64,000 nt of DNA, taken from Azolla caroliniana. Lineage: Eukaryota; Plantae; Polypodiophyta. Where the stretch lies: NCBI GenBank assembly GCA_043228905.1, contig JBHGNT010000015.1, positions 5,270,001 through 5,334,000 of the forward strand, read 5' to 3'. Under the pieces are notes generated by a model. That model saw only the letters and a list, made by a program, of their open reading frames with translations. It did not search any database and had not been told where the DNA came from. Below, in pieces: positions 9,961 through 54,081 of the stretch; position 1 is the first letter of the stretch, and every line of letters begins with the position of its first letter. The translations under genes and the position numbers were made by a program.

Positions 9961-9962
9961 AA

Positions 9963-13287: not shown

Positions 13288-13300
13288 CATTGTTGATTGA

Positions 13301-25172: not shown

Positions 25173-25627
25173 TGTTACGGGCATGACCATATAATATCCC
25201 GTGGTAAGAATTTACCGTAGTATTCTATACACGTGGATAAGTGTGAGGGTTAAACGAGAGTGTAAAGAAGGGGAGGATTACTTTTAATCCTCGGGATTGA
25301 GACAACCCATTAGGTCAAGTGTGAACTTGCCTGGGGGCCTTGGGTATCGCTATAAATAAGAGGCCTAGCTACCCTCATTGGATCATCTTTTGACTACATC
25401 GAGACTCTGCTCTTGTGGTGGGTGAACTCTTGTAGCGAGCGCGCCAGCACCAGGTACGACTCGACGCCATTGCGGTGGTATGGGACGCCGATCGAGGCTC
25501 GAGTCCGTCTCGATCCCTTCGCTCGGGGGTGGTCGGGTGGATCGGCACCCTTCTTTCTCTTTCTCCTTTCTATCTATCATTTCTTTATCCTTATCTTAAG
25601 CTTACGTTAGTATTTAGATCTATAATA
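25173..25627 (+). mobile_element. Solo LTR of the Gypsy A family
   Basis: 455-bp reverse-complement match to 3400-3854; TSD CATGG at 25168-25172 and 25628-25632. Confidence 0.95.
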
Positions 25628-26614: not shown

Positions 26615-26761
26615 TGTTACGGGCATGACCATTTAATATCCTGTGGTGAGAATTTACCATAGCCTTCTTCACACTCTCGTTTAACCCTCACACTTATCCA
26701 CGTGTATAGAATACTACGGTAAATTCTCACCACGGGATATTAAATGGTCATGCCCGTAACA
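26615..26761. mobile_element. 147-bp fold-back insert made of two inverted Gypsy A-family LTR 5' ends
   Basis: TGTTACGGGCATGACC...GGTCATGCCCGTAACA; TSD GCTAG at 26610-26614 and 26762-26766. Confidence 0.9.
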
Positions 26762-27030
26762 GCTAGAGTAGGTTCGTGGGAAGGAGATTGGTGGTTGCGG
26801 TGGGCTGGAGCTCTGTGATAGGATGGAGGAGAAGGTGAGGGGGACGAGCGATGGGAGCACTGATAGTTAGAAGGTGGGTTTCTATTTTGTGTAGAAGATC
26901 TTCTATTTCCTTCTTTTTGTGGCTTAGGGTTCATTGGGCGGTGATCCATCGTGGTGCCGCGTAGTCCTTTTAATAGTCGCTATCTTTTTTTTTTTTTTTC
27001 TGTAACGGTTATATACAACCTATTTTTACA

Positions 27031-33240: not shown

Positions 33241-33987
33241 TGTTAATTTACATGCTGTTCGGCTAAATTTTGAATCGGGGTTGGTTGAGTCGGCTTGGTC
33301 GCTCCTCTAGTCCTTCGGCCCTTCGGCTCTTTTAGACCTGGTGCTCGATTCCGGCTCTTCTCTTGCTACCTTTGATTCAACTTTCCAGCTCTCCTCAGCT
33401 TGTTGTTGTAGTCCCATCTGTCTCCTTAGTGTTCCAAAGTGGTGATCTGGGCGCGGTTTCGTCACACAATCTACAATGTTCTCCTTTGTATCAACCTTCC
33501 AGACTTTGATCTTTTTATCAGTGACAAGCTCATGTATATGGTGATACCTCACCTCAATATGTTTCCTCATGGCATGATAAACTAGATTCTGAATGAGGTG
33601 GATTGCGCTATGTGAGTCACAATATAGAGTTAGAGTGGGATGGTCGAATCATCTCTTGGCCGAAAAATCGACTGATAGTTGTTGCATCCAAATTGCTTCT
33701 TTTGCTACCTTCAACGCAACAATGTACTCCGCCTCTGTGATGGAGAGTGCCATGTACATTCTTGGAGTTTTGACCTCCGTAGGTGAAGATGTAGCCTGAT
33801 GTCGATTTCCAATTGTCAGGGTTGTTGTCATAGTCAGAATCAGTGAAACCTCAACTTTGGTCGGATAGTTAGATCTAAAAGTCAGTTGTAAGTTCTTGGT
33901 TCCGCAAAGATACTGGAATATGTGTTTAACAACTTCCCAGTGTTTCTTTCCGGGATTAGAATTGTAGCGCATGGTGACGCTTACAAC
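33241..33987 (-). pseudogene. Old Copia RT-end/RNase H fragment (Copia G)
   Basis: SNPGKKHWEVVKHI, ALSITEAEYIV, KHIEVRYHHI, ENIVDCVTKP. Confidence 0.85.
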
Positions 33988-34231
33988 CATAGATTGACAC
34001 ATGCGTGATATTCTTGATATTCTCCATGCATGATACTCGCAATATTCGAGAATACAAAATGGCCCTAAGAATATTATAAAACCATTCGTTTCGCAAAATA
34101 AATATACAAATAAATAAATAAATAATTTTTTTAAAATAGATAGATTTAATTCACTACAAAAAAACAATCATTCATTAATAGATTAAAAAAATATGATTCG
34201 TATTTACTGTCCTTTATCACTAGTGTCAAAT
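33988..34231. mobile_element. hAT-type MITE copy 2, 5' part
   Basis: Starts with TIR CATAGATTGACA and aligns to 405-600. Confidence 0.9.
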
Positions 34232-34639
34232 TGTTGAGAGTCGAACTCAACTTCCCATAGTAATAGGTTTCACACTAGCTTATGGTCATACCAATCTAGT
34301 TTTGTAAATAGTAGAAAGGGCACTTGCCCTAGTTTAGTTGGTATTTAAACCAACCCCTTGTAACTTAGTTACGGTTGGAAGTATTTTGGTTAATGTAATA
34401 TACAATCTTTTATCTCTGTCTTAAGCTCTCTCTCTCTCTCTCTCTCTCTGTGTTTTGCCTTACGTGCATACACACACACACACACACACACAATTATCTT
34501 CCGCTGCATTACACCACCAACTCCATTTATTTACATGGTATCAGAGCATGTGGTTGCTTAATCGAATCTATTCAACTGTGTTGTGGTACACGCTGACGAT
34601 CAACAGAACCGGCTCATCAACAGAGAAGAAATCGACATA

Positions 34640-37363
34640 ATGAACACTCAGATGGGAAGCGCTCTTCCTACAGAGAAGCTTGACAGAACGAACTTCGCAT
34701 CTTGAGAATACAAGATGCATCAATACCTTGTCGGACAAGGTTATTGGAGCTACATTGAAGGAGCTCACGAAACTCAACCCAACCCAACACACGCCGACTA
34801 TTCTGCTTGGGTGCAGGCCGCAAGCCGTGTGTTGGATTGCCTTGCATCATGCATTCATGATCATATGCTTGGCTATATTCGAGATTCGAAAACACTGAAA
34901 GAAGCTTGGGGAAACCTCAAGAAGATTTTTGCGGCCAACACGGCTGCACGAAAGCTCCAACTTCAACAGGAGCTAAATAACATGCAATAGAGGGACATGT
35001 CAATCACAGGCTATACCTTAAAGATCAAGGGGTTGCGCTATGCCCTCGGTTCGATTAATGTTGTAATCGACGATGAGGAGATGGTGCAAATATGCCTCGG
35101 CGGCTTAACACCCCGATTTGGCTCGATTAGATCGACCATCCTTGCAAGGGAGAACCCTCCTTCATTTTTCGATCTCCAATCAATATTGTTGGTTCAGGAA
35201 AATCACGCCCGACAAAGGAGCAACGCACCAGAAGGTCATATGCTCTACTCCCAGTCAGATGATAGAAGAAATTTTGGTTGTGGAAATAGAGGTTGATTCG
35301 AACAAGGCCGTAATGGTCGGCAGCCTCAAGCGCGTAACTCCCACCAATGGCAAGCGGACAGGAACGACCCTAGAGAGTTTGGCAGAAGGGGGAGTCATCA
35401 CGCTGGACCAAGCAATCGTAATACCCCGATCGAATGCGGGTACTGTGGAAAACACAACCACTATGAAGAGGAGTGCCAGAAAAAGGTACGAGACTCGGCT
35501 TCAACTAGCCGATAGCTCACGAACTACGCATCGAATTCCGATTACGACAATCGTAGGGGAATGTTCACGAATTCCACATCGAATGTTTACAAATTACGCC
35601 TTGAATTCCGACTATGGCGACCGTGGCAGAATGTTCGTAATGAGGCACGAAGCACACTCAATGTCCGCACAGGCCTCAACTGGCGCCTCCGCCTCAAATA
35701 ACGTATGGTTTGTTGACCCGGGAGCATCCAACCACATGACTTCTCATGAAGATTGGTTTCAGGAATTACGAAAACTTGAACAACCCGGATATGTTGAGAC
35801 AGGCGATGACACGACTCATCCAATACAACATATCGGGAATGTCCCATTTGGAAATAATGGCAAACAAACCTATCTCAAGAACGTACTGCTTGTCCCTACC
35901 GTCACGAAAACCTGGTCTCGGTCAGCCAGATTGTCGAACAAGGAATGCAGGTACGATTCATCAATGATGGGTGCTTTATCGAAAGAGGAGATCAAGTCGT
36001 AGCTCACGGCCGTATGTTTGTCCTCGAATCGAACAAGGTAAAATTGGCCATGTTTGCAAAGGGCCTCAAAGTCGAAACTGACCTAAACTTGTGGCACAAG
36101 AGAATTGGTCACATCAATCTCCAAAAGCTTCAAAACATGAAATCGAAAGGAATTGTAATCGGACTGCCGAACTTTACCGCGACGGAGATTACATGCATAT
36201 GCGAGGCGTGCCAGTTCAGAAAAGCAACGCCGACATCCATTCCCGAAAGAGCAGAATGTGAGCAAAGGGATCCTGGATATCGTGCATTGAGATGTATAGG
36301 GACCGGCTTAGATAAGCACACTTGGCAGATGCTGATATTACGTCACGTTCATCGAAGACTTCTTCAGGCACACCTAGATCTACTCGGTGAGACAGAAGAG
36401 CGAAGTGTCCAGACACTTCTAGAGGTTCAAGGCCAAAGTCGAAAAAACTACGGGTCAGCACGTACGCTGCCTTTGATCGGATAGAGGCAAAGAATACTTT
36501 TCGGATGATTTTACAACGTATCTCCGAAAGGAAGGAATCTAACGAAAATTCTCATGCCGTCACACACCTCAGCAGAACGGTGTAGCTGAGCGTAAAAACC
36601 GGCACATAGTAGAAGTTGCACGAGCTATGATGAATGAGAATAACCTGTCAAAATCGTATTGAGCAAAAGTGGCGAACACGGTCGTATACTTCATGAATAG
36701 GTGCAAAACCTTGGGAGTACACGACGTAACTCCTCATGAAAAGTTCTTTGGAAAGAAGCCGGACTTATCGCTTACGTACATATTCCCGACGATACACGAC
36801 AAAAGCTCGACCCAAAGTCGGAGAAATGTATCCTCCTAGGATACTCACTCGAACAGAAGGGGTATAAATGCTACAACCCATCTACCCGAAAAGCTCGAAC
36901 AAGTTGAAACATAGTCTTCGACGAGTCCGCATCTTGGTATGCACCAGAAACAACTTCGACTTTGACTCTGCTCGACCCGGAATCCGCTGAAATGGAGATA
37001 GAAGACGAAGATCGGCTCACACGCATGTTCGAAGAAAGCCCGATTATGACATGGCTTAGTGGACCACTAGAGCCCCCGAGTGACCAAAGCACATTTCGAT
37101 CGAGTCCGAAACTCGACAAAGGGAAGGCCAAGATGTCCGAATATGAAGATCCAATCGACAACGCATCGACTCACTCCCTGGACAGTGAGTTCGAAGGCCT
37201 AGACATCCCACTTATCTGGATAGATGGAGCGAAGAAAGCCTTAGTATCCGCAAACGAGAAACTCCGCCGATCGACCCATGAAAAGAACCCTGTAAGATGT
37301 TTCGGCTACAACGATTATATGGCGTACCATTACGCCTTCATGATGAAGGTAGCATCAGTACGG
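34640..37363 (+). pseudogene. Copia B gag-protease-integrase (many stops)
   Basis: MNTQMGSALPTEKLDR, WFVDPGASNHMT, LWHKRIGHINL; homologous to Copia A. Confidence 0.88.
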
Positions 37364-38062
37364 TGTCGCGTTGTTACGCGCGCTTGCGTGTAGAACGAGG
37401 CGGGACCACCGGGGCCTTGGACCAAGAAATAGCTGAGAAGGAGGGGAACGTAAACGCAACAGACGCACTTGCACGCACACGGACGCGGGGCACACAGGAA
37501 TCACAGTGCATCAACACAGCAAAACGAGACGACTAGAAGTCTGGGTATATGAACACCTATGTATATTAATTTGTATGTGTATATCAAGACGGTTACAACT
37601 AACAGGCTGGCAAGGCGAACGCCGACACCTGTTTACTCACACGTAGAAGAGTGAGATGGAGACTCTACCAGAAGCACACGGGCGTTCCACGAAGCAGAGT
37701 CAGCCTCCCGAAAACTTGCGCCTAGCGAATATAAAGAAAGAAGGAGGAGAAGAGCTCGGTCCCAGTCCGACAACACTTCGTCCTCCACAAAAAAAAAACC
37801 GATCCCCCCTTTCATTCCTCTCCCTCTCTTTTATAGCCCAAGGAGGGAGGCTGTTATCATTCGTTATATCATATTAATTCTCTGTCCTTTCGGACAGAGA
37901 TACACCTCGATTCTCTCCCTATTGAATGCGTGCTACCTAGGATTTCACCTCAGCCGACTTGTACCTACCTACTTACTATACAACGAAAGTGTGCTCACAT
38001 GTAAGGGCCGGTTTACACACGCTAAATTCGGTTTCCGCCTAGGGACGGTTTTCTTCACGACA
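37364..38062 (-). repeat. 3' LTR of Gypsy C
   Basis: Repeat of 53384-54081; TGTCG...CGACA. Confidence 0.93.
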
Positions 38063-38921
38063 TCCGCCCCCACCTAACCGCGCATCCACCGGTATGCGCC
38101 AAAATTGGGCTCTTGCCGGAGAAAACCGGTCCACGCTTTACTCCTCGCCTTTCGGATCGTCATCCGCCTCGGACCGTCCGTCGTCGCCGTCCATGATTTC
38201 CAGATCCGGCTCACACTCGTGTCGTTTCTTAAATGCTTTGACCCTCTTCCCCGCTACTGGTATTGCCATCCTCGTACCGTCGAACTCCGTACGATGGTAG
38301 GTCCCGTTGTCGTTGGCGCCTGTCACCGCGTAAGGCCCGAACAACCTCCTTGCAAACTTTCGCTGTCGTGCCTTTCGGCTCCGGATCGTTTCGTGAGTCG
38401 GGTGGAAACCGCTGGGGTTTTGGACTAGGAAGAGGAGAGTTTTAAGGCTAATAAGAATATAAATATGTTGTAAGAAAGAGTTATAGCAAACTCGTGAATC
38501 CCACGAGTGTATTGTATTTGATTAATCAATATGAATATAAGAATATAAATTTGGGTTGAAAGAGAATGATATAGAATCCTCGTGAATCCCACGAGTATAG
38601 TTTATTAATTGGTGTTTTTTAGAAACATATCCAGTTTCCAAGTATTTCACACACAATTACATTGTGCTCCCCATCCTTATGTAGTGATGAGGAAGTCTTA
38701 GTAATCCATGCTTTTTCTCTAACTATAGACCCCATGCTTTTCCTATAGATAGACTATATGCTTTATCTAAAGTGATCATGCTTTTTTCTAACTTGTGCGA
38801 TTTTTATCATGCACGCTAGATGTGTATGTGTAGCTTTTTCTTTTGTTATGCGTTTTTCTAATGTTTATCCTAGCGTGAATTTACCTTTCTATGTGGGACA
38901 TCTATGCTTTAACACTAATGA

Positions 38922-39010
38922 AATGCTAGTGTAATGGTAAGACATTACATTATTAACATGGAGGTGCAAGGTTCGAATCTTGCCCTATGCATGTTCCATT
39001 TATTTTGCTA
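38922..39010 (+). ncRNA. tRNA-like Pol III cassette (A box, B box, T-run) in the element D 3' LTR
   Basis: A box TAGTGTAATGG 38927-38937; B box GGTTCGAATC 38970-38979 in hairpin GCAAG..CTTGC; TTTT runs downstream. Confidence 0.55.
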
Positions 39011-39090
39011 TTTTCTTCTATTTCTTCATTTTTTATTGAATCTAATACTATATACGTTTTTCACGTAGTGTACAAAATACACTACGACAC

Positions 39091-41112
39091 TCACCCCCTC
39101 CAAACCCGCACATCCTCCGGTATGTGCCGAAGTTGTTGGTGTTTGTTAGTCTCCTCCGTCCGGTCTCTACCCGATTGGTTTCGTTGCCGGCTCGTAGTAC
39201 CCTCGACTTCTCTTGTTATGTTGACTTTGTCTCTCCATTTGGAGCACATCCATTCTTTCCACCCGAACCATTGTCGACATCCGATCCACCATAGTCTTCG
39301 TTCGCTTTTTGCATGGCCCGCTTGGTCCTTGTCATCCGCGGTAGTATCTTTTCTTGCCCTCTTTCTTTTCTTCATCAATCTCGACTTCTTTTCGGATTTT
39401 CGGCTTAGTCGGATTAGCTTACTTCCGATTCGGTCTCGTCGGATCGTCTTTCGTTTAGTTCGGCTTCCTTTCCGATTTGTATTCGGTCGATCCGGACTCG
39501 GTCGATCGGTTTTTACCGATTCAGTGCTCTTTCGGGTCGGTTTCTTTTCTTTTCTTTTCGTCCGGATTTGCTTTCTTTTCTTCGTTTTCACCTGCCTTGT
39601 CCGGTTCGACTTTCGGCACTTCTTTCCGTTGTTCGCCACGTAGGTCCTCCGATATGTGCTCGTTGTTCGGTCCTCGTGTGGTTGTAATGCATGCTTCTTT
39701 TCTCGCCGTAGCGCGTGCTTCTTTATTCGCCATAACACGCGTTTCTTTATTCGCCGTAGAGCGTGCTCTGTATTACGCGCTTCTCCCGTCGTAGACCCGA
39801 CCTCCGCATTGTCGCACTTTCTTTTAGATTGGAATTTCGGATGGATCATTTTCCATCCGAACCGACTTCCGACTTTACCTTCCTCGCCGCCATCTCCCGT
39901 CTCTCCAGTCTCACGTTGGTTCTCGGACACAACCGCCGAAGTCTCTAGATATTGTTGGCATGAATCCTCGGTATTACCTTCTTTCGTAGTTTCACCCTTA
40001 GCATTCTTCTCGGCTATCTCTTCATCGTATTCGTCGGCTTCGACATTCGTTTTCTCTCCGCCACCTTCCGTCTCTTCGGTCTCACGTTGCCTTTCGATCG
40101 CAACCGCCGGAGTCTCTGGAATCAGTGGTGGGGAAGTCTCGATATGGCAATCCGCCATTGATTCGTCCATAGCCACCTCCGATTCGATTTCGTCTTTTAT
40201 GGCTACCTCCTTAATCACATCCGCTTCACACTCTTTATCTGCATCAATTATGCAAACATCTATTATGCTTACCCCTTTTTGACCCGATGTCTCGGGCACT
40301 TGTATCCCGAAATTTCCTTCTACACTTGAATTATCGGCCTTATCCTTCGCCATCGTTCTTTCACAAGACGAGTGGGTGTCTTGTTCCACTCTTTCTCCCG
40401 TGGTACCATCATGTTGTATTTCGGCCTTCATATTGGCTTCATCGTTTTTCCTCAATCGACCATCCTTCATGGGCCATGTCGTTGTTGACGAGATTCTCAG
40501 CTTCCTTTCATCATGTCTTCGGCATACCCTTTCGACTTTAGCCCAATCCTCGGTAAGACCATTCGCACCGTCATCGTCTTCGAGTTCAATCCCGATGTCC
40601 TTCCTTTCTTTCCGATCAATCGATCTTACGAACATTAGGACTTTATCCTCTCCCACCAATCGTTGTTCCCGCTCCGAGAGTCGAGCAAAACGATGCTCGA
40701 ACTCTAGGAATGCTTGTGTTGCACTTCGGTGGGTCTTCTCCGATGCCACCCATTCATCGAACTCTCGCCGATCTCGTCCCTTCGGTCTATCGTAATCATA
40801 TGCCTCTCGTAAAGCTTCTTCGAATGACCCCCATGTCGAGTTTTGTTGCCGTATCTTGTGGATTCTCTCTTGTAGCTCATCCGTGGCCACCCGATTGAAG
40901 GATGTCACTTGCAATCCTTCCGGTATCCCACATCGTATCATCTCCGCCTTGTAGTCACGTAGATAGCATGACACATCATTTCCGTTGAATTGTCCGTTTC
41001 GTTGTACGAGCCGCTTTACTACCGCCGTGATCTCCGACATCGCTTGTTGTTCTTGTAGCATCCGTTCGAACATCATCATCATCATGTTCATCGCCTCTTG
41101 TTGATTCTCCAT
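39091..41112 (-). CDS. Gag-like protein with long acidic then basic C-terminal extension (~673 aa from first ATG)
   Basis: Uninterrupted ORF; N-terminus aligns by eye with Gypsy C gag (F.G.D...YL..Y.AEM...IPE; VL.FV..D; DGLT.DWA.V.RVC). Confidence 0.85.
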   Translation of the reverse strand: MENQQEAMNMMMMMFERMLQEQQAMSEITAVVKRLVQRNGQFNGNDVSCYLRDYKAEMIRCGIPEGLQVTSFNRVATDELQERIHKIRQQNSTWGSFEEALREAYDYDRPKGRDRREFDEWVASEKTHRSATQAFLEFEHRFARLSEREQRLVGEDKVLMFVRSIDRKERKDIGIELEDDDGANGLTEDWAKVERVCRRHDERKLRISSTTTWPMKDGRLRKNDEANMKAEIQHDGTTGERVEQDTHSSCERTMAKDKADNSSVEGNFGIQVPETSGQKGVSIIDVCIIDADKECEADVIKEVAIKDEIESEVAMDESMADCHIETSPPLIPETPAVAIERQRETEETEGGGEKTNVEADEYDEEIAEKNAKGETTKEGNTEDSCQQYLETSAVVSENQRETGETGDGGEEGKVGSRFGWKMIHPKFQSKRKCDNAEVGSTTGEARNTEHALRRIKKRVLWRIKKHALRREKKHALQPHEDRTTSTYRRTYVANNGKKCRKSNRTRQVKTKKRKQIRTKRKEKKPTRKSTESVKTDRPSPDRPNTNRKGSRTKRKTIRRDRIGSKLIRLSRKSEKKSRLMKKRKRARKDTTADDKDQAGHAKSERRLWWIGCRQWFGWKEWMCSKWRDKVNITREVEGTTSRQRNQSGRDRTEETNKHQQLRHIPEDVRVWRG

Positions 41113-41128
41113 CTCCTTGCCACCCGCC

Positions 41129-41146
41129 TTCACGTCGGGTTCACCA
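41129..41146 (-). promoter_or_regulatory. PBS complementary to tRNA-Trp
   Basis: Plus strand reads TTCACGTCGGGTTCACCA, matching from memory the 3' 18 nt of plant cytosolic tRNA-Trp. Confidence 0.85.
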
Positions 41147-41708
41147 ACTGTGTCGTGCCTTTCGGCTCCGGATCGTTTCGTGAGTCGGGTGGAAACCGCT
41201 GGGGTTTTGGACTAGGAAGAGGAGAGTTTTAAGGCTAATAAGAATATAAATATGTTGTAAGAAAGAGTTATAGCAAACTCGTGAATCCCACGAGTGTATT
41301 GTATTTGATTAATCAATATGAATATAAGAATATAAATTTGGGTTGAAAGAGAATGATATAGAATCCTCGTGAATCCCACGAGTATAGTTTATTAATTGGT
41401 GTTTTTTAGAAACATATCCAGTTTCCAAGTATTTCACACACAATTACATTGTGCTCCCCATCCTTATGTAGTGATGAGGAAGTCTTAGTAATCCATGCTT
41501 TTTCTCTAACTATAGACCCCATGCTTTTCCTATAGATAGACTATATGCTTTATCTAAAGTGATCATGCTTTTTTCTAACTTGTGCGATTTTTATCATGCA
41601 CGCTAGATGTGTATGTGTAGCTTTTTCTTTTGTTATGCGTTTTTCTAATGTTTATCCTAGCGTGAATTTACCTTTCTATGTGGGACATCTATGCTTTAAC
41701 ACTAATGA

Positions 41709-41797
41709 AATGCTAGTGTAATGGTAAGACATTACATTATTAACATGGAGGTGCAAGGTTCGAATCTTGCCCTATGCATGTTCCATTTATTTTGCTA
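41709..41797 (+). ncRNA. Second copy of the tRNA-like Pol III cassette (element D 5' LTR)
   Basis: Same sequence as 38922-39010. Confidence 0.55.
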
Positions 41798-41880
41798 TTT
41801 TCTTCTATTTCTTCATTTTTTATTGAATCTAATACTATATACGTTTTTCACGTAGTGTACAAAATACACTACGACATCGC

Positions 41881-44763
41881 GTTGCCCTGTGTTGGTTGTC
41901 GAGGCTGCTGTCATACACTAGGACCCAGTCGCCTTCCTCGATTTTCTTCGGTCGCAGTCAGTGAGTCCGGTCAAATCTCCCTTTGTTCTTGAACCTTGCC
42001 AACCGAAGCTTCTCCGCGGGTCTTTCCACGTCCTCCGGTCTCCGCTCGAGTTGTCGAATCCGTGCCGCCAGCAGCTCCTCTCGGCTCATCTCATCTCTCC
42101 AGTCCATCGTGGCCCATGAGGAGATCGTTCGCTCCGTCGGCATGATCAGCTTTTGTCTGTACATATGCTCTGCCGGCATGAACCCGGTTAACGAACTGTG
42201 CGTAGTTCGGTCCGCCCATAAGGCATAAGGTAGCAGTCGTGACCAGTTCCCGACTTGGCCCCAGCACGCCCGTACTAGCGCTTTGACTATTGGCCCATGT
42301 CCGCGCTCCACCTTCACATTAGCCTCCGGATTGTACGCTGTGGTGAGCGAGAGTTTGACCCCTAGCCGGTCAAACAACTCTTCGGCCTCTTGCGCGTCCA
42401 ACTCTCCGCGGTCAGCCACGATCTTCCCTACGCTCCCGTACCGACATATCACGTCCTCGAATAGGAACCAGCACACATCCGCGGTCGTTTTGTTCTGCAG
42501 TGCTCGGCCTTAAACCTGGTTCGTCAGATCCTCCCGAGCCAGCACCAGATACCGCATCTGTCCTACCCCCATCGGCATTGTCACCAAATCCACCATCCAT
42601 TTGAAGTGGGTGGTCGGCGGGTAAGTTGGGTGGAGCTCGTCCCAGTGTCGGACTATGGAGTGCATTTGACAGCTTTCGCAAGTTTTCATGAACCGATGCA
42701 CGTCCCGGTACAGTCCCGGCCACCAATACTTTCCCTTTAGCTTCTCAAACGTGGCCCATGTCCCACGGTGTTTGGCCCAGGGACTCTCGTGGTATGCCGA
42801 CAATAACTCTTCTTGCTCCTCTTTCTTTGCCACCACTCGAAGCGGGACGCCGTCCCTTTTCTTCGGGTGCTTCCATATGTACCCGTCTCGTAGGAAGAAT
42901 CGATACGCTTTCTTCCGGATCCTGTTGGTCTCTTCCTTCGTCCACACCGCGTCCGGTATCATTGTTCTTAGGAACTCGCCGATCTGGAGCCACTCCCCGT
43001 CATAATTGCTCTCGTCGAAGTCGTTAAGCGCCGGAGTGCTTCCCTTTCCGGTTGTTACATAAGCCGCCTCGAAGAAGTCTACGTCGACTTCCTCGTCCTC
43101 TTAAACCATGTCGTCCTTGTTTTCAAACCTTGCTCTTGAGAGCATGTCGGCCATGGCGTTGTCTTTTCCAGAAATGTGTCGTATCTCCGGATTCAGGGAC
43201 TTGATGTATGCTATCCACCTGAGCATCGCCAGGTCCGGTGTCGCGCATCCGGAAACCATGCCGTCTCGATTATTACCTTTGTCCTGATCAGGTAGTCTTT
43301 ATCGGCCTTCACCGCCGAAACGATACCCCAGAGTTCGCGTTTAACCTGGGCGTATCCTTGTTGTCGCTCACTGAGGACCTTCGCGCCGAACTGGATGGGG
43401 AACCTCGTGCCAACGTCATCCTCTTGGTTAATCACCCATCCGATCCTGGTCAGGCTCGTATCTACGGTTACGTAAATCGGAGTGTCTCTACCGTAGACAA
43501 CCTTTCAGAGCGTCGGTGCCGTGGAAAGTGCTTCCTTCATCTTTCGGACTAATTCCATATGCTCGTCTCCCCATTCGAATTTACGCCCTTTCTTCAGCAA
43601 CCCATACAGTGGTTGCGCGATGTGGGCGTAATGCAGGATCTAGATATGCTAGAACGCGCATGCTCCCAAGAACCTCCGAACCTCCGTAACCGAATTGCAA
43701 TCATGCTTCATCGCGGAGATGGCTTCCACCTTGGCCGGAGACGGTTTCCTACTGTACGGCCCGCATAGGTGTCCGACAACCATGATCTTTGATTGCCTGA
43801 AGGCCGATTTTTCCCCGGAGAAGGTGAGCCTCGCGCCTTCTAGTCTCTGCAACACCTTCTCGCAATCATCGATGTGAGTCGCCACGAAATTCCGGCATCC
43901 ATCCGGTCCGATTGTCTTGTCCCTTTCCTCCAACAGGCATCCCCTGATCGAGATGTCGTCTAAGAATGGCATGGTGATGTTCACCATGTGAGCCACCGAG
44001 TTCGTCCCTCCTTGCGGTAGGGTACACATCCGCACTAGGCCGAGAGGAGTCCGCATCGTCGTAATGTCCCTGCTCTCCATGGCTAGTTGAAACTGATCGT
44101 ACCCTGAGTACAGATCACCGATAGAGTAAATCGACCTTCCGACGAAGGCCTCCGCGAACTCGTCTATGGTCGGTCCGATTCCTGTATTCCGAATGGTCAC
44201 CTTGTTGATCGGCTGCAGGTCTTGAATAAAGCGCAGCATGCCGTTCTTCTTTGGCACCGTAAACCACCGATTCGAATACGGGGCACTCGACGGTTCGAGG
44301 ATGCCCATCTCCACCTTTTGCTGCAGGAGCTCCATCAACTTTGGGATGTGAGCTCTCGGCACCGGTTTCGGCTTGAGATTCCACGGTACATGCGGTACCG
44401 TGAAGATCACCATCGGTTCGACAATTGTCGGGTCTACGCACCCGATCTCCTCTAGTGAGAATGTGAAAGCCTTCCTGTGCCTCCCGAGCATTCTCCGAAA
44501 CCGGTCCTCCTCCGGCAGTAGAAATCCGCCCCCACCGACCTTGAGCTCCCGTAGCGTTATGTCGGTGAATCGGTGCCCTATGCCAGCCGGGTTCCGTAAA
44601 CTTGGGTCCGACGCGACCCCTTTTATCCGCTCTTTGCTGCCCTCCGGCAAGGGTGCCGCGACTGACCTCACCTTCCGGTCCACAGTCTTGTACTTTGTAT
44701 CCACGCGGGCCATTCGACCCGATCCAATCCTTTCCCCGAAGTCCGCGATGACTTCGTATATTC
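41881..44763 (-). pseudogene. Gypsy C pol (RT-RH-IN), degenerate
   Basis: LRFIQDLQPIN, DLYSGYDQF, LPQGGTNS, FLDD; integrase ADRGE, YNPEAN.KVERGH; tail at 38138-38363. Confidence 0.88.
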
Positions 44764-44817
44764 TGTTGGGAGATAGGTCCCTCCGGATGGGAAGGGAGAT
44801 AGGCCGAGGCCGAAACC

Positions 44818-45028
44818 GTATGAGGAGTACCCGGCTATGGAGAGCCGGATGATGCAGACCCGGTGAGAACCGGATGAGTACCCGGCTACAGAGAGCCGGA
44901 TGGTGCAGACCCGGTGAGAACCGGATGAGGAGTACCCGGCTTCGGAGAGCCGGATGGTGCAGACCCGGCGAGGACCGGATGAGGAGTACCCGGCTACGGA
45001 GAGCCGGATGGTGCAGACCCGGTGAGGA
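44818..45028 (+). repeat. 54-bp tandem repeat in Copia E U3 (4 units here, 5 in LTR2, 3 in LTR3)
   Basis: Unit CGGATGAGGAGTACCCGGCTACGGAGAGCCGGATGGTGCAGACCCGGYGAGRAC. Confidence 0.9.
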
Positions 45029-45527
45029 ATGCTCACCGGATGAAGAGACATATTCGTAAATATGTTTCTGAGAGTCCATCGAGGCTATATTTGTAAATAG
45101 CCGAAAAGTCATATTAGTATAAATATGACTTAGGGCAAACTTTTAATTACTGTTGTTGTTGTTATTCTTGTTGGTGCAAGAATAGAGTGAGCGCGTAACA
45201 GTGTACACAGAGAGAGAGAGAGAGCAAGAGGTCGTTGCCTCTGTTGTAACCGCCGCCTGTGGCGAGGATCGTGAGCACGAGGTCGTTGCCTCCGTGAACT
45301 CACTGTTGTACATACTCACATAGTGATAGTTTGCAGCCTGTGGGTTGCCGTGGTTTTTCCCTCTTTGGGTTTTCCACGTAAACATCCCGTGTACTGTTCT
45401 CCTCTTTGTGTCGTGCTTTCATTTCCGGTTTTCTGTGCATGAATCTAAGCTTGGTTGCGGCCGAGCATTGCGTACAGGGGAGCGTACTGTTCTTGACAAG
45501 TGGTATCAGAGAGAAACGACACAGAAA

Positions 45528-48500
45528 ATGGACGAATCGTTTGGCGGCATGTTCAAACTCACCGGCTCCAACTATTCAGTGTGGAAGTCGAAGATGAGGG
45601 ACATGCTCATGGTTAAAGACCTCTGGTTGCCGGTTCAAATCGGGGACAAGAGACCGGACAAAATCAACGTCGCGATATGGGAGGTGATGCACATGAAGAC
45701 AACGACGTACATACGTTGCTTCATCGACATGAGCCTGTACAACAACTTCAATGAAGAGAGCAAGGCTCATGAGCTCTGGGAGAAGATCGGCATAATGTTT
45801 CAGAACAAAAATGTTGTTAATCAGGTTTCGGTATTCCGGAAGTTAGTAAGACTCCGGTACCAAGATGGCTCCAGCATGGCGAAGCACATGAATGCCTTCC
45901 AGGGGCTGATCCACCAGGCAACTTCATTGGAAGTACCTCTCGCCGATGAGGTACTAGCGCTACTCCTGCTCGGTTCCCTCCCGGATAGCTGGGAGACGTT
46001 GGTTGTCACTTTGGGCAACGCCGGGCCGGAAGGAAAACGGTTATCCCTAGCAAGAGTGAAGTCGAGCTTGCTAGATGAGAAGGCGCGTCGGAAAGATAAG
46101 GATACGAACTCTGACTCCAAAGCGCTCCTTACCGAATCGGAACGCGGAAGACATAGAAACCGTAGTCCCCAGAACCGGGAGAAGTCGGGGACACGGTCAA
46201 AGTCAAGGGGGAGGCCTACTTGCTTCTATTGCGGCAAGCCGGGACACTTCCAGAAGAACTGTCGGCACTTCCGTAAAGACAAGGAAACCGACGGCACCGA
46301 TTCAAAGCGGACACCGGACCGGAACGGTAAAGACCGCAGCGGACCGGACCGGAAGGGAATGACAGCAATCGCGGCAAGTGAAGAGGAGTTGATGCTCATC
46401 ATCGAGGAGAGTGAGATAAACCTTGCCGGCAACGAGATGACCTGGGTGGTAGACTCCGGAGCGTCATTCCACCTTACCCCGGACCGGAAATGCTTCTCAT
46501 CCTACTCAGCCGGTGATCACGGCTGTGTCCGGATGGGGAATGAAGGTACATGCCGAATTGTCGGCATAGGAGATGTGTGGTTGTCGACACCAACCGGATG
46601 CAAGTTGCTGCTGCGGGATGTCCGACACGTTCCGGAGGTTCGACTCAACCTGATATCAGCCGGTCGGCTAGATGATGAGGGCTACACGGGTAGCATCCGG
46701 AACGGTGTCATGAAGTTCAGCAAAGGGAGCCTGATTGTGGCTCGGGCCCGGAAGGTAAACACATTGTACCTGATGAATGCCCGGTTATGCCCGGAAGAAG
46801 TGAACGTGGCATCCAACACTACCGGTGAGCTATGGCACAAGAGGCTGTGTCATATGAGCGAGAAGGGGATGAAGAGGCTTGCAGACGACAACCTCATTCC
46901 AGTGAAGAACGTGCACTTAGAGAAGTGCACTGATTGTCTGGCCGGTAAGCAGAACCGGACCTCCTTCCGACCAAGGTCACCGATGACACGTAATGCACCA
47001 CTGGAGTTGGTGCATACGGATGTGTGTCAAGTAGACACGAAGTGACATGCCGGAGCGCAGTACTTCGTGACGTTCATAGATGACCACAGCCGGAATCTGT
47101 GGGCCACACCGTTGAAGACGAAGGATCAGGTGTTATCTGTCTTCAAAGAGCTCCACGCGAGAGTGGAAAGAGAAACCGGCCGGAAGTTGAAGGTGGTTCG
47201 AGCAGATAACGGAGGAGAATACCGGGGGTAGTTCGGGGAATACTGCCGCTCGAAGGGAATCCGGCTCGAATTTACCGTGCCGAAGACGCCGGAACTAAAC
47301 GGACTGGCCGAGAGGATGAACTGGACGATAATGGAGAGGGTCCGGAGTATGCTAGCGCATGCAAAACTACCCAAGAAGTTTTGGGTTGAGGCACTGTCAA
47401 CGGCCACATATGTGATAAATAGATCACCCTCAGTACCCTTGGACGGAGACACGCCACAGAGAGTGTGGACCGGTAAGGAAGTATCCTACCGGCATCTGAA
47501 GGTGTTCGGGTGTCTCGCGTACGTGCATGTAGCTAAGGACCGGAGAGGAAAGTTAGATCCAAAGACCCGGCCATGCATATTCCTCGGTTACAGTGACGAC
47601 GAGTTGGTCGACAAGAAGGTATTCCGGAGTCGAGATATTATCTTCATGGAGAACAAGACGCTCGCCGACTCAGAGTCGGAGAAGAAGATAATGAACTCCG
47701 AGTCGACCGGTAAGGATCGACTCTACGATGAGCAGACCCAACCGCCAAGAGACCGGTTAGCACTCGAGGGACCAGACGGTTACGGTGAGGATACCGAACG
47801 GGCTGAAGAAGAAGTAGAGGAAGCTAAAACCGGAACCGGCCAAGACCCCGAATCGGATTCGGATGAAGAGCAGATGGATGAGCCGGTCACCGAAGCCCAG
47901 AGACGGAGATATCCTCTCAGAGAGAGAAGGGCCCCCCGGAGATTTCCGGATGCAGAGCATGTTCTGCTGACTGATGAGGGGGAGCCGGAAAGCTTCGAAG
48001 AGGCGAAGGAAGACACCCACAGCCGAAAATGGTTAAGTGCCATGCAGGATGAGATGGATTCCCTGCATGAGAACCATACGTATGAATTGGTGGAGTTGCC
48101 GAAACGAAAGCGGGCACTCCGAAACAAGTGGGTGTACAAGTTGAAACCGGGAGCTGTCGGCAACCCCCCGAGAAACAAAGCCAGGATCGTGGTGAAGGGG
48201 TTCCAGCAGAAGAAGGGCGTGGACTTCGACGAGATATTTTCCCCGGTAGTAAAGATGACCTCCATCCGGACAGTGCTGAGTATAGCGGCAAGCATGGACC
48301 TCGAGGTAGAGCAGCTAGACGTGAAAACGGCATTCCTTCACGGTGATCTCGTAGAAGAGATCTACATGCAGCAAACGGAAGGATTCGTGGAGAAAGGGAA
48401 GGAGCACCTGGTTTGCCGGTTGAAGAAGAGGCTCTACGGGTTAAAGCAGGCCCCCCGGCAATGGTACCGGAAGTTCGACTCCTTCATGACCGATCAAGGG

Positions 48501-49553
48501 TACCACAAGACGCAAGCCGATCACTGCGTGTTTGTGAAGAAGTTTGAAGGAGGTGACTTCCTGATACTCCTTCTGTACGTGGACGACATGTTGATCGTCG
48601 GACGGGACCAAGTCAAAATACGGATGCTGAAGAAGGCTCTCAACCGGACCTTCTCAATGAAAGACTTGGGTCCGGCAAGACAGATGATGGGGATGCACAT
48701 CATTCGGGACCGGTCAGCGAAGCAATTATGGCTATCACAGGAGAAGTACGTGACAAAGGTGCTTCACCGGTTCAACATGTCAGATGCGAAACCGGTCGGA
48801 TCGACACTTCCGGCAAACTGCAAGCTATCCGGTAAGCAAAGCCAGAAGACGAAAGCAGAGAAGGCGGATATGATGAAGATTCCATATGCCTCTGCCGTCG
48901 GGAGCTTGATGTACGCAATGGTTTGTACCCGACCGGACATAGGATACGCAGTCGGAGTGGTGAGCCTGTTTATGAGCAATCCCGGCAAGGAGCACTGGAA
49001 CACAGTCAAATGGATACTCCGGTATTTGAAGGGCACTTCAAATATGTGTCTCCGATTCGGCTCCGAAAAACCTCAACTTGACGGTTTCACCGATTCGGAC
49101 ATGTCGGCTGATGTGGATACCAGCCGGTCTACATCCGGGTATGTAATGACATATGTAGGGGGAGCTGTTTCGTGGCAGTCGAGGCTGCAGAAGACGGTTG
49201 GATTGTCAACCACAGAGGCGGAGTACATGGCAGCTGTGGAAGCCGGCAAGGAAATATTATGGATGAAGGACTTCATCAGAGAGCTCAGTATCCGGCAAGA
49301 TGAATATCGACTTTATTGTGACAGTCAAAGTGCAATCCATCTTGCTAAGAATGCGGCCTACCATTCCTGGACGAAGCATATCCAGCGAAGATATCACTGG
49401 ATCCGGGAAAGAGTAGATGACCAGGAGTTCGCACTGACGAAGATCCACACGGCCGAGAACGGGTCAGATATGCTGACCAAAGTGCTAATACCCGACAAGC
49501 TAGATGCATGCCGAAAGAGGATCGGACTAGTAAGACACCCCATGCCGGAGTGA
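45528..49553 (+). pseudogene. Copia E gag-pol, one frame with two premature stops (~47043, ~47229)
   Basis: CFYCGKPGHFQKNC, WVVDSGASFH, LWHKRLCH, QLDVKTAFLHG, YVDDML, TKHIQRRYHWIR. Confidence 0.93.
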
Positions 49554-49973
49554 AGGGGGAGTTTGTTGGGAGACAGGTCCCTTCGGATGGGAAGGGACAT
49601 AGGCTGAGGCCAAAACCGTATGAGGAGTACCCGGCTACGAAGAGCCGGATGATGCAGACCCAGTGAGAACCGGATGAGGAGTACCCGGCTACAGAGAGCC
49701 GGATGATGCAGACCCGGTGAGAACCAGATGAGGATTACCCGGCTTCGGAGAGCCGGATGGTGCAAACCTGGCGAGGACCGGATGAGGAGTACCCGGCTAC
49801 GGAGAGCCGGATGGTGGAGACCCGGCGAGGACCGGATGAGGAGTACCCGGCTACAGAGAGCCGGATGGTGCAGACCCGGTGAGGAATGCTCACCGGATGA
49901 AGAGACATATTCGTAAATATGTTTCTGAGAGTCCATCGAGACTATATTTGTAAATAGCCGAAAAGTCATATTA

Positions 49974-50266
49974 CCTGTGCCTCCCGAGCATTCTCCGAAA
50001 CCGGTCCTCCTCCTCCGGCAGTAGAAATCCGCCCCCACCGACCTTGAGCTCCCGTAGCGTTATGTCGGTGAACCGGTGCCCTATGCCAGCCGGGTTCCGT
50101 AAACTTGGGTCCGACGCGACCCCTTTTATCTGCTCCTTGCTGCCCTCCGGCAAGGGTGTCGCGACTGACCTCACCTTCCGGTCCACAGTCTTGTACTTTG
50201 TATCCATGCGGGCCGTCCGACCCGACCCAATCCTTTCCCCGAAGTCCGCGATGAGTTCGTATATTC
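49974..50266 (-). repeat. Diverged duplicate of the Gypsy C segment 44474-44763
   Basis: Aligns by eye with several substitutions and a 3-bp indel. Confidence 0.9.
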
Positions 50267-50956
50267 TGTTGGGAGATAGGTCCCTCTGGATGGGAAGGGA
50301 GATAGGCCGAGGCCGAAACCGTATGAGGAGTACCCGGCTACGGAGAGCCGGATGATGCAGACCCGGTGAGAACCGGATGAGGAGTACCCGGCTTCGGAGA
50401 GCCGGATGGTGCAGACCCGGCGAGGACCGGATGAGGAGTACCCGGCTACGGAAGAGCCGGATGGTGCAGACCCGGTGAGGAATGCTCACCGGATGAAGAG
50501 ACATATTCGTAAATATGTTTTTGAGAGTCCATCGAGGCTATATTTGTAAATAGCCGAAAAGTCATATTAGTATAAATATGACTTAGGGCAAACTTTTAAT
50601 TACTGTTGTTGTTGTTATTCTTGTTGGTGCAAGAATAGAGTGAGCGCTTAACAGTGTACACAGAGAGAGAGAGAGAGCAAGAGGTCGTTGCCTCTGTTGT
50701 AACCGCCGCCTGTGGTGAGGATCGTGAGCACGAGGTCATTGCCTCCGTGAACTCACTGTTGTACATACTAACATAGTGATAGTTTGCAACCTGTGGGCTT
50801 CCGTGGTTTTTCCCTCTTTGGGTTTTCCACGTAAACATCCCGTGTACTCTTCTCCTCTTTGTGTCGTGCTTTCATTTCCGGTTTTCTATGCATGAATCTA
50901 AGCTTGGTTGCGGCCAAGCATTGCGTATAGGGGAGCGTACAGTTCTCGACATATTC

Positions 50957-53360
50957 CCATCAAACTAACCGGCACGGTCTGGTGTTCTCTAAGGTCTTCA
51001 TTGATCACCTTTCGTAACTCGCCCAAGGTGTCGTCAAAAGAGACCGCCTCCACGGCGCCGTTGATTTCTTCGTCGGGGGAGAGGACTCCGCATCCCCTGA
51101 GCCGCTACTCCGCCCTCTTCCTTTCCTGGCCGCTTACACCAGTTATAGTACAACCCCCACTGTCGGAGAACCAAAATTTCCTCCCTATGGTACAGGTCTT
51201 CTTCCCTACTGTACACTTGTGGGGTTTTTCCGGGGTGTCCGGACTATCGCGGCCCCACACGTTGATAGCTGTCTCTAAAAATCCCCTCAGGTTTCGCCTC
51301 CGAGGGTCTCGCGGTTACGCTCATGGTTCGGTCGCACCGTCAGGAACTGGACCGAGTGACGCCCGTCCTGGCTCTTGACTCTTGCATAGGCCGAACCGTT
51401 GTCCTGCACCTTGGTCTCCATCCGTGCCGCCGTGATGTATGGTTCTCCTAGTATAACCAGATGTGAGGACGTCCCTTGCACGAAGAAGTGTTGGTCGATC
51501 TTGATATCACCAATTTTCACCCGTACATTTGTGCAGGCTCCATGTAGTTCTTCCGTGGCGCGCGTTGTTGCCCGTATTTTCCAGCCATGTTTGGTGTTGA
51601 TCGGCCATTTTCCCCCTTTGTAGAAGTCCATGGACATCAAGTTGATTTCTGAACCGTGGTCCACCAACGCCACCACCGGCTCCTGGACATCCCCGATCTT
51701 AATAGGGGTCTCTGTGGTCGCTCTGGCCCAGTGCGGCCTCGAATAGTGGCTCTCCGCCAACTCGTCTTCTAGCGCCATGTCCTCTATGTGCGTCGTTCGC
51801 ACTTCCACCGGCTTCTCCAGGTCTAGCCCTGTCGACAGCCTCTTCCTCTTCACCAAGTCTACGATGGAGTCGTGGAACTCCTTCTTGGCGATCCCAAGCA
51901 CCTACCTCAGCGACAGCTCCACTTTGCTGTCGAGGATAGGTTCCTCCAGGACCTTTCGCAGATCCGTGGTCCTTTCGATTTCCATGCTCAACCGGTACCC
52001 GGCCTTCTTGGCTTTATCTGGTGCGCCGGTCGCACGGGCCTCATTCTACCGTTGACCAAATCGGGTCTCGTACCGTTGCGAGGGCCCAGCACCTTTGGTT
52101 TTACCTACTCGCTTGTCTTCCACCAGAGCCTCGTAGTTCTGGCATGCAGCTTCAACGAAGCCCGTCTTCTCTTCGACCGGGTCACTCCACCCGGTTAGCT
52201 CCCGGACCCGTTTTTCCACGCGGTCCACTTCTTCTTTCCTTAACCGTGCGCCGGCAAGGCCTTCCAGCATCAGCGGCCAGAATCCGGCTTCGTCCGTCTT
52301 CCGGGCCTCACCACCTCCGACCCGGATCCCTGCCGACGCCGAGTAGTGGACGGTCTCCGCGTGGCAAGCCGCCGCTTCTTCCATCAGCCGTTTCATACCC
52401 CCTCGTCCGACATTCAGGTTCAGGGCCCTTCGGGTCTTGCTAGCGTGCACCCGACCGTTCCATAGGTACACCACGTTGGCTCTCATTGCCTCGGCGAAGT
52501 CCCCGCAGTCCCTCCGGACGTGGCCGACCGCGTCGCACCACAAACACTAGTTTCCAGCTAGAGGCCTTCGATCACGGGCCTGTTCGCTGCCGTCCCTCCG
52601 TGCTTGTGCAATTTGGAGGTCCTTTACCATCCCAGTCAGCTCCTCTAGAGCTGCTCCTCCGCTCGAGCCTCTGACCATGCCGGTCGAAGTCGATCTGGTC
52701 TCGAGCCAGTCTCGGGTCACTTCCTTTATCGACCCACTCTCGCCGTTTGTCAAAACGGCCACAAACTCTCTTCACTACGGCCCAGTCGGCCGTCAGCCCG
52801 TCATCAGTCTCCAGCAGGAGACCCACCTGCTCTCGGTTCCTCGCATCCACCAACTTAACGAACAACAGGACGCGGCTCGTGTCTAGTACGGTCCGGTCGA
52901 GTGCCGAAAGACGCGCGAAGCGTTCTTCAAACTCCCGGAGGAGCACTGACGCGTTTCTCCCCTTTTCGGGGGTCTCTACCCATTCCATGAAATCCCGTTT
53001 CGAGAGCCGAAGCGCGTCATCAAGCCCGTCTTTTTCGAGGAGCCGACCTTCAAACTCTTCCCAGGTCCGGCTCTCAGCCCGTACCTCGAGCACCTTCGCA
53101 TGGATGCCCGATATTGCCACTCGCGGGAAACCGGTCAGTCGCCTCTCTTCCGGAATGTCTCTCATTACCATCTCGGCCCAGTAGGCCTCCAAATAGCTCG
53201 TAGCGTCCTTCCCACCGAACCGGCCTATCGTGCTGACAACCGCTTCAATGGCCCTATCGAGGGTGTCTGCACCTTCGCGCGCACTCACTATCCGATCCAC
53301 AGCCGAAGCCATGGCTTCTGCGAGATCCGACCCCTTCATCTTTCTATTCCTCTGCCGCAT
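50957..53360 (-). pseudogene. Gypsy C gag-protease and start of pol, degenerate
   Basis: C.WCD..GH.RRDC knuckle, ALVDHGSEINLM protease. Confidence 0.87.
51218..51284 (-). promoter_or_regulatory. Putative -1 ribosomal frameshift signal (Gypsy C)
   Basis: GGATTTT-TAG, then stems GCTATC/GATAGT and TGTGGGG/CCCCACA. Confidence 0.7.
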
Positions 53361-53383
53361 GTTCACGCCGGGTTCACCAAATA

Positions 53384-54081
53384 TGTCGCGTTGTTACGTG
53401 CGCGTGCGTGTAGAAAGAGGCGGGACCACCGGGGCCTTGGACCGAGAAATAGCTGAGAAGGAGGGGAACGGGAAGGCAACAGACGCACTTGCACGCACAC
53501 GGACGCGGGGCACACAGGAATCACAGTGCATCAACACAGCAAAACGAGACGACTAGAAGTCTGAGTATATGAACACGTATGTATATTAATTTGTATGTGT
53601 ATATCAAGACGGTTACAACTAACAGGCCGGCAAGGCGAACGTCGACGCCTGTTCACTCACACGTAGAAGAGCGAGATGGAGACTCTGCCGGAAGCACACG
53701 GGCAACCCACGAAGCAGAGTCAGCCTCCCGAAAACCTGCACCCAGCGAATATAGAGAAAGAAGGAGGAGAAGAGCTCGGTCCCAGTCTGACAGCACTTCG
53801 TCCTCCACAAAAAAAAACCGATCCCCCCTTTCATTCCTCTCCCTCTCTTTTATTGCCCAAGGAGGGAGGCCGTTATCATTTGTTACATCATATTAATTCT
53901 TTGTCCTTTCGGACAGAGATACACCTCGATTCTCTCCCTATTGAATGCGTGCTACCGAGGATTTCACCTCAGCCGACTTGTACCTACCTACTTACTATAC
54001 AACGAAAGTGTGCTCACGTGTAAGGGGCGGTTTACACACGCTAAATTCGGTTTCCGCCTAGGGACGGTTTTCTTCACGACA
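53384..54081 (-). repeat. 5' LTR of Gypsy C
   Basis: Repeat of 37364-38062; adjacent to the Trp PBS. Confidence 0.93.

Follow-up and report, generated by a model that had tools for sequence, protein, structure and literature searches.

Why a retrotransposon without Pol keeps its Gag, and how it enters a Pol-bearing particle, are questions that the TR-GAG papers leave open in the parts considered here (PMC4350172, PMC8704663). Both questions are raised by a 64,000-nucleotide stretch of Azolla caroliniana DNA (contig JBHGNT010000015.1, positions 5,270,001 to 5,334,000), hereafter the window, in which a 3,513-bp long terminal repeat (LTR) element lies at 38364-41876 on the minus strand, nested in the 3' end of Gypsy element C and coding for Gag alone. 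We put at roughly 70% the probability that it is a recent, likely high-copy element that borrows protease, reverse transcriptase (RT) and integrase from an autonomous family of the Phygy type, and that it carries this family's U5 end, primer-binding site (PBS) and capsid N-lobe. This reading builds on the element's structure, identical LTRs, NCGN flanks, lack of Pol, predicted fold, capsid switch at residue ~95 and open frame under selection, all of which are established, and the breakpoint near the capsid linker offers a testable answer, namely that the helper-matching part would consist of U5, PBS and capsid N-lobe.

The element and its capsid

The two 726-bp LTRs align with 0 mismatches, and the insertion is flanked by a 4-bp target-site duplication (TSD), TCGC, with the junctions ...TTCGC/TGTCG and CGACA/TCGCG. 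A 4-nt spacer separates the 5' LTR, read on the minus strand, from the PBS TGGTGAACCCGACGTGA, which is probably of the tRNA-Trp type, and a polypurine tract (PPT) stands directly before the 3' LTR. The GC content is 34% in the LTR and 49% in the interior. In the 2,061-bp interior, two frames contain 38 stops each and the third only one, which lies within the PPT; this third frame gives an open reading frame (ORF) of 673 codons that starts shortly after the PBS and ends in the PPT. Pfam found 0 families in this ORF at E 0.01, and thus no protease, RT, ribonuclease H or integrase, although the same search finds Pol domains in neighboring elements. An earlier note, made from the letters alone, had described these repeats, TSD, PBS, PPT and uninterrupted ORF without Pol domains, and the alignments and searches bear it out; its further remark that this is the only intact large ORF holds for complete element ORFs but not for stop-to-stop stretches, which reach 773 and 709 aa in other elements. 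At 41113-41211, the gag frame stays open for 33 more codons upstream, through PBS and U5, as it does in the autonomous P0010, P0051 and P0057. At LTR substitution rates of 0.9-1.3e-8 per site per year, from which the host's own rate may differ, 0/726 differences place the insertion below about 0.2 million years (My), and C at 2-3 My.

In the window, only the gag of C (35.6% over 194 aa) and that of Gypsy element F (43% over 90 aa) match the ORF in tblastn, a resemblance that had already been noticed. The Gag capsid makes up only about 205 of the 673 residues. Residues 1-207 are predicted to form a two-lobed retrotransposon capsid, modeled at a mean pLDDT (predicted local distance difference test) of 90.8 with a linker at 108-111, and the closest structures to this model are the capsids of dArc1, Arc, Copia and PNMA2 (Z 8.5-9.5).

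The two lobes of this capsid differ in their relationships. Over residues 1-105, the element shares 80/105 positions with P0058, a member of an autonomous family (P0058, P0051 and P0012, 74-80/105), compared with 31/105 for C and 25-39/105 for the Pol-less proteins P0004, P0005 and P0213. Over residues 112-205, the Pol-less proteins share 65-68/94 positions with it, compared with 37/94 for P0058 and 40/94 for C. Diagnostic sites, counted by hand, favor the autonomous family by 46 to 2 as far as residue 93 and, from residue 96 on, the Pol-less lineage by 61 to 4, in a count where the Pol-less side could match either of two sequences. In separate trees of the lobes, which kept 34 and 35 of 39 rows after rows without an alignable lobe were dropped, the N-lobe grouped with the autonomous family (support 97/98) and the C-lobe with the Pol-less lineage (100/99), and an approximately unbiased (AU) test on 19 rows rejected the unity of the N-lobe with the Pol-less group (p 0.007). 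The C-lobe matches, from 95 candidates, lack knuckle and protease in 8/8 cases, and no counterpart of the C-lobe and tail was present in any autonomous Gag found. Since the N-lobe sides with the autonomous family and the C-lobe with an old Pol-less lineage, the capsid is, on these alignments and trees, a mosaic whose affinity switches at residue ~95, by the capsid linker. Locus L015 retains 82% DNA identity across the mosaic junction, and because L015 and P0063 display the same mosaic, its formation is judged to predate the burst of this element.

The shared block extends beyond the protein. The gene calls of P0051 and P0057 begin upstream and translate U5 end, spacer and PBS into almost the same residues as the element does, so that the block in common comprises U5, PBS, leader and N-lobe. 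Because the U5 end, PBS spacer and N-lobe match the P0058/P0051/P0012 family, the nearest helper would be a Gag-protease family of the P0058 type, and the earlier proposal that C and F fill this role is probably wrong; C shares only 31/105 N-lobe positions, is old (LTRs 95% identical) and is broken.

The charged tail and its Trp-rich end

The capsid is followed by a tail of 390 residues, acidic and then basic. The acidic block (25% Asp+Glu, net charge -31) is made of degenerate repeats, the basic block contains 37% Lys+Arg (net charge +50), and a Trp-rich motif lies near the C-terminal end (Table 1). A motif scan of the 673-aa ORF detected no zinc knuckle or protease motif. A search with the whole protein gave 14 matches among 7996 scored candidates, namely 2 autonomous Gag-protease proteins and 12 proteins without knuckle or protease, and a profile search retrieved 516 proteins at E 0.001; of the 150 matches listed, most are fragments. 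The Trp motif is present in 34 of 214 stored proteins and a knuckle or protease motif in 21, with both in 0, a separation weakened by the many fragments that are too short for both motif classes. As this Gag is invisible to Pfam, comparable high-copy families have likely been overlooked in annotation.

On the Wimley-White scale, residues 607-626 reach -8.3 kcal/mol for the membrane interface, compared with +2.2 for the next best window, and no transmembrane helix is predicted in the motif (maximum Kyte-Doolittle value 0.73); the Trp-rich end would plausibly bind membranes. The motif has no sequence match in PDB, no Pfam family and no usable Atlas match, and a weak search found no homolog among proteins longer than 1178 aa. 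Only 2 Gly-Trp pairs and one Trp-Gly, counted with an Argonaute hook in mind, are present in the ORF.

Selection was estimated as the ratio of nonsynonymous to synonymous rates (dN/dS), pooled against 15 metagenome loci (the best 15 of 575 pattern matches), which were retrieved with a pattern covering 7 codons of the Trp motif. For gag, where the earlier note had looked to dN/dS for support, the ratios are 0.35 in the N-lobe (2 loci) and 0.24 in the C-lobe (3 loci), with 0.7-1.3 in shifted frames. The acidic and basic blocks give 0.70 and 0.61, and stops occupy 3/1092 aligned codons of the acidic block, compared with 39/1004 and 45/991 in shifted frames; on these figures, the tail is kept open yet is nearly neutral.

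For the Trp motif, the ratio is 0.23, compared with 2.1 and 1.1 in shifted frames (pattern codons included). Leaving out the 7 search codons raises it to 0.38-0.54, and dS is low (0.18-0.25 vs 0.36-0.43), so that some of the constraint may act on the nucleic acid; both values count against a reading in terms of the peptide alone. A less probable alternative goes further and regards the Trp-coding 90 nt as a cis-acting RNA or DNA signal (packaging, dimerization or strand transfer) and the tail as filler, open only so that translation reaches the PPT, which might, for instance, spare the RNA nonsense-mediated decay. It would account for the lowered dS, for a segment that is the best-conserved interior DNA (85-94%) and has an 11-nt stretch complementary to U5, in which no covariation was seen, and for a tail with dN/dS of 0.6-0.8 and large indels. 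Nevertheless, nonsynonymous changes remain rarer than synonymous ones in the motif even without the search codons, the ratio among distinct variants is 0.40 compared with 0.78 in the acidic tail, and the shifted frames lack this deficit. Relatives carry the motif in the frame of Gag, at positions 348-707, and in P0011 and P0212 its sequence is altered and still Trp-rich. The motif is constrained, and because it stays in frame and remains Trp-rich where it has changed, the constraint is probably mostly on the peptide.

Proposed use of a helper and the alternatives

In the cycle that we propose, Pol II transcription from the 5' LTR would produce one RNA, and its translation one Gag, unprocessed or processed by the helper. 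The matching N-lobe would permit co-assembly of this Gag with helper Gag-Pol into mixed particles, where the basic tail would replace the missing zinc knuckle and nucleocapsid in binding RNA, probably the element's own, and the Trp-rich end would bind the membrane surface at the assembly site. The helper RT would then act from the shared primer site and PPT, and the helper integrase would insert at NCGN, creating the 4-bp duplication. The N-lobe swap would arise by template switching (recombination) in mixed particles. Host pressure may be an alternative reason for this swap, because in Ty3 it is the N-lobe of the capsid that diverges and is exposed to the cytosol (PMC6525542).

A more ambitious version, which we regard as rather unlikely, holds that an old satellite lineage rebuilt its Gag from a capsid, an acidic/basic tether and a membrane-seeking Trp peptide that replace nucleocapsid and protease, and that it tracks whichever helper is active by swapping the U5-PBS-N-lobe block, as phage satellites match the capsid of their helper. 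If so, the Trp peptide would be a membrane anchor for mixed particles that autonomous elements lack, and the element would be a specialized partner rather than a mere parasite.

Somewhat less probable still is that the element's Gag interferes with the helper capsid, as Ty1 p22 does, or supplies capsid cooperatively, as in Sabrina/WHAM, while its RNA rides in helper particles. Ty1 p22 is reportedly the C-terminal half of the capsid protein, made by autonomous Ty1 itself; like our sister sub-families with only an N-lobe, it is a partial capsid protein of a retrotransposon family. Such a role would suit the missing zinc knuckle and the relatives (P0002, P0003, P0006, P0007 and L001) that keep only N-lobe and tail, which alone would presumably form no capsid. 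It would also suit the distribution of the differences to P0001, 26/32 of which fall in residues 1-115, corresponding to the host-exposed part in Ty3 (PMC6525542). In contrast, both lobes of this copy are under purifying selection, an element would be expected to amplify poorly if it blocked its own helper, and the N-lobe variation in assembled relatives is possibly assembly chimerism.

We consider it doubtful, and a little less probable again, that C/F-type elements are the helper and the P0058-type N-lobe is incidental. The element shares with C and F the TGTCG..CGACA termini, as had been stated before, together with a Trp-type PBS and an NCGN TSD. The PPT-side sequence is 79% identical over 52 nt, the C-lobe clade is weakly sister to C/F (81/73), C-lobe identity is slightly higher to C than to P0058 (40/94 vs 37/94), and C-type sequence is abundant in sequencing runs. 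The PPT-side and C-lobe similarities indicate a weaker, older link. However, Gag identity is only 35%, the LTRs have 5-6 terminal bases in common and no U5, and the copies of C and F in the window are broken and older; U5, spacer, PBS and N-lobe all match the P0058 family instead. The likeness to C that had been claimed for PBS and TSD length extends to the 4-bp NCGN TSD and the putatively Trp-type PBS; the PBS is one base off, and the spacer differs. The claim that the AT-rich LTR interior is unrelated to C/F is upheld, since blastn finds no match of this interior to their LTRs, only the tip and PPT (52 nt, 79%) and the PBS (27 nt, 89%).

A one-off deletion derivative, or LTR identity caused by assembly collapse, is very improbable: no contig listed bridges the exact insertion junction, yet 3 other assemblies contain the identical ORF structure of 673 aa, with 6 differences across residues 116-673 (a sequence cluster of 5), near-identical contigs are deep and have other flanks, the C-lobe and tail have no counterpart in any autonomous Gag found, and the element has all its junctions at TSD, PBS and PPT. 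The element stretch was found in 20/24 sequencing runs listed, all of them DNA by record or guess, and at least half its words in 14. Near-identical interior contigs (0-2 mismatches) have depths of 1178 in run X1, 7097-8562 in X2 and 1721-2511 in X3, whereas the diverged pieces among those listed mostly have depths of 8-63, with exceptions in X2 (5379) and X18; the contig with the exact LTR tip reaches 3686, 19427 and 8917, 2.3-5 times the interior. Set against the diverged pieces, the depth of the near-identical contigs suggests roughly a hundred copies of this kind. Behind the LTR tip, loose ends start with ACGG and GCGT, and related 3' LTRs are followed by NCGN in 4/4 cases; CG accounts for 5% of the dinucleotides in the window. 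From the deep contigs and the other NCGN flanks, this is likely a high-copy family, which agrees with the earlier picture of a young, multi-copy, TR-GAG-like element. Contigs with an empty site were not accepted as insertion polymorphism because C itself is multi-copy.

The relatives, whose LTRs are only about 70% alike, represent on this comparison an old and diversified Pol-less lineage. In P0002, P0003, P0006, P0007 and L001:1103-2830, the C-lobe is lost right at the linker, and the N-lobe, the tail and mostly the Trp motif are kept in frame; these sister proteins are candidates for helper-binding or interfering proteins. The young intact copy, the N-lobe-only sisters and the family of the proposed helper offer a natural series in which co-assembly can be studied. 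Within the youngest sub-family, residues 1-115 (40768-41112) hold 26/32, 14/20 and 27/33 of the differences to P0001, P0017 and P0018, which may reflect repeated N-lobe exchange or assembly chimerism.

Several points weigh against borrowing from a P0058-type family. Foldseek ranks the same folds and Ty3 on top, none of them significantly (best E 0.083), and the AU test on the 19 rows gave a borderline p of 0.051 for the unity of the C-lobe with the autonomous group. Of the helper, only Gag-protease proteins are known, without pol or the rest of the LTR, so its autonomy and activity are presumed. P0058-type DNA had no match in viral or genome contig collections, and the metagenome scan gave 0 autonomous elements among the best 15 of 575 matched stretches. 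A model of the complex between the element and P0058 capsids, predicted without alignments, scored 0.19, which favors neither outcome. The relatives come from short-read assemblies and are possibly chimeric, and the dN/dS pairs all share the element's branch and are not independent, with 2-3 loci for the capsid. Finally, contig depth does not equal copy number, and an LTR depth more than twice that of the interior leaves room for solo LTRs or for an autonomous element, so far unseen, whose LTR is the same.

Classification, LTR features and surroundings

By structure, we classify the element as a variant within the TR-GAG class and as a satellite of Phygy-type elements. TR-GAG elements are gag-only (Chaparro et al., 2015, PMC4350172) and at most 4 kb long by the criterion of that paper, one has been seen to transpose (PMC8704663), and the limits of the class are blurred (PMC13570524). 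The element resembles them in its LTR-PBS-single gag ORF-PPT-LTR layout, TSD, length below 4 kb, likely high copy number and lack of Pol. Its single ORF has Gag capsid similarity (35% to C gag, 80/105 to P0058, capsid fold) with Pfam silent, and at least two copies at different insertion sites are indicated by the cluster of 5, the depth and the other flanks. Its TSD is 4-bp NCGN, whereas coffee elements have a 5-bp TSD, a length that is set by the helper integrase and is not part of the selection filter in PMC4350172; because of the 4 bp, we file it as a variant of the class and not with the coffee family. Unlike coffee TR-GAG1, it has no zinc knuckle, and it further differs in its mosaic capsid, in a Gag that Pfam does not recognize and in an ORF of which two thirds are a non-Gag tail with a Trp-rich end.

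Phygy elements are non-chromovirus Gypsy elements of 7.7-10 kb with a full polyprotein, and among 186 elements the TSD was 4-bp NCGN in 100% and the PBS tRNA-Trp in 81% (Neumann et al., 2019, PMC6317226). The element and C share the 4-bp NCGN TSD (TCGC and ACGG), supported by 4/4 related loci and 2 loose-end consensuses, and a PBS of putative Trp type, and the element's Gag is related to Gag-protease proteins of elements with Phygy features. At 3.5 kb and with gag only, it would be a dependent of such elements rather than a member by RT phylogeny, which supports the earlier claim of dependence on a Trp-primed Gypsy with a 4-bp TSD. C without its two inserts measures about 7.46 kb and would fit Phygy by its TSD and putative PBS type.

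The wheat Sabrina/WHAM-Wilma and Angela systems, in which helpers are switched by LTR transfer (Wicker et al., 2021, PMC9744471), are similar as old semi-autonomous lineages that keep Gag and share PBS and termini with the helper. They are also similar in that a switch takes up helper LTR sequence and that variants carry novel ORFs. Here, the swapped block extends as far as the coding sequence and stops close to the capsid linker. The element also lacks a protease, in contrast to the Gag and protease ORF of the Sabrina_SA type, and its novel part is fused behind the capsid. In the literature covered, which does not extend to Repbase or most subscription journals, neither a gag-only family dependent on Phygy elements nor a swap of capsid lobes nor a tail with this motif is described. 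Beyond the earlier note, the analysis adds the insertion in C, the mosaic capsid, the missing zinc knuckle, the charged tail with its Trp-rich end and a tRNA-like cassette in U3.

This cassette, an A box and B box on the antisense strand, gives the only matches to the textbook A/B pattern in the window (0/5000 shuffles). The boxes are recognizable in the near-identical pair L003/L008 and in L007, degenerate in the 3' LTR of L001 and absent from its shortened 5' LTR, and unrecognizable in the interrupted L004. The box arms are 0.71-0.75 identical to three relatives, compared with 0.46 between the arms and 0.52 in the rest of U3. A functional tRNA or known RNA was rejected, as Rfam and default ARAGORN were negative and only relaxed ARAGORN made calls. 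Helenus/Cassandra (TRIMp3) likewise has a tRNA-like A/B-box in the LTR that no longer resembles a working tRNA (Kojima, 2024, PMC10886601). Both are non-autonomous LTR elements, yet Helenus is a short non-coding terminal-repeat retrotransposon in miniature (TRIM) whose Pol III promoter makes template RNA, whereas our element is coding, 3.5 kb long and carries the cassette in antisense; because it points away from the element's transcript, the cassette cannot make genomic RNA. Our guess is an old short interspersed element (SINE) head kept as a TFIIIC boundary. At the U3 tip, where a hairpin-forming inverted repeat lies, mean identity to three related LTRs is 0.91 over the first 35 nt. Twin 17-nt palindromes at 38491-38507 and 38579-38595 (and +2787) are conserved in related LTRs; they are possible factor-binding sites or RNA hairpins.

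Table 1. Features of the gag-only element and its host element, in window coordinates
Feature	Positions	Strand	Basis or remark
TSD, left copy	38360..38363		TCGC, fits NCGN
3' LTR, 726 bp, same as 5' LTR	38364..39089	-	LTR alignment
tRNA-like A box-B box cassette, U3 of 3' LTR, antisense to element	38927..38979	+	A/B pattern scan
Hairpin-forming inverted repeat, U3 tip	39061..39086; second copy 41848-41873	-	sequence; LTR comparison
PPT, including ORF stop codon 39091-39093	39090..39101	-	PPT-side sequence resembles C and F
Single ORF of 673 aa, coding for capsid, charged tail and Trp-rich motif	39091..41112	-	frame analysis, tblastn, Pfam
Trp-rich motif, residues 603-630	39223..39306	-	protein comparison; common only to Pol-less relatives
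Basic tail, residues 421-600	39313..39852	-	composition; dN/dS about 0.6
Acidic tail, residues 208-420	39853..40491	-	composition; dN/dS 0.70; stop counts
Capsid C-lobe, residues 108-207, old Pol-less lineage	40492..40791	-	identities, trees, fold
Capsid N-lobe, residues 1-107; 1 to about 94 match autonomous P0058/P0012 family	40792..41112	-	identities, trees, fold
4-nt spacer and PBS (probable tRNA-Trp type)	41129..41150	-	same spacer/PBS implied upstream of autonomous P0051
5' LTR	41151..41876	-	LTR alignment
tRNA-like A/B cassette, 5' LTR copy	41714..41766	+	A/B pattern scan
TSD, right copy	41877..41880		TCGC
Phygy-like Gypsy C, the host element (LTRs 95%; TSD ACGG)	37364..54081	-	holds the gag-only element

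The surroundings form a three-level nest at 34631-54552, in which a Copia element is interrupted by C, and C holds the gag-only element and a second Copia (44764-50503, TSD TATTC) whose LTRs contain arrays of 54-nt repeats in unequal copy number. A chromodomain Gypsy at 3397-10417, presumably Tcn1-like, has LTRs that are 98.9% identical and a single gag-pol frame interrupted by two stops; it has also left a solo LTR at 25173-25632 and a head-to-head fragment at 26607-26769. Its occurrence together with Phygy-like elements would suit a plant outside the seed plants. Short AT-rich dispersed repeats occur at 396-592 and 33979-34185 and at 655-887 and 60413-60610, the second of which truncates element F at 60412. 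A long interspersed element (LINE) remnant with endonuclease and RT domains occupies 11735-16862. Outside the window, divergent long ORFs of 897 and 573 aa (L011:510-3200 and 3721-5439, coverage 111) stand beside a fragment of the gag-only family; this pair looks like a DNA transposon, transposase-like by eye.

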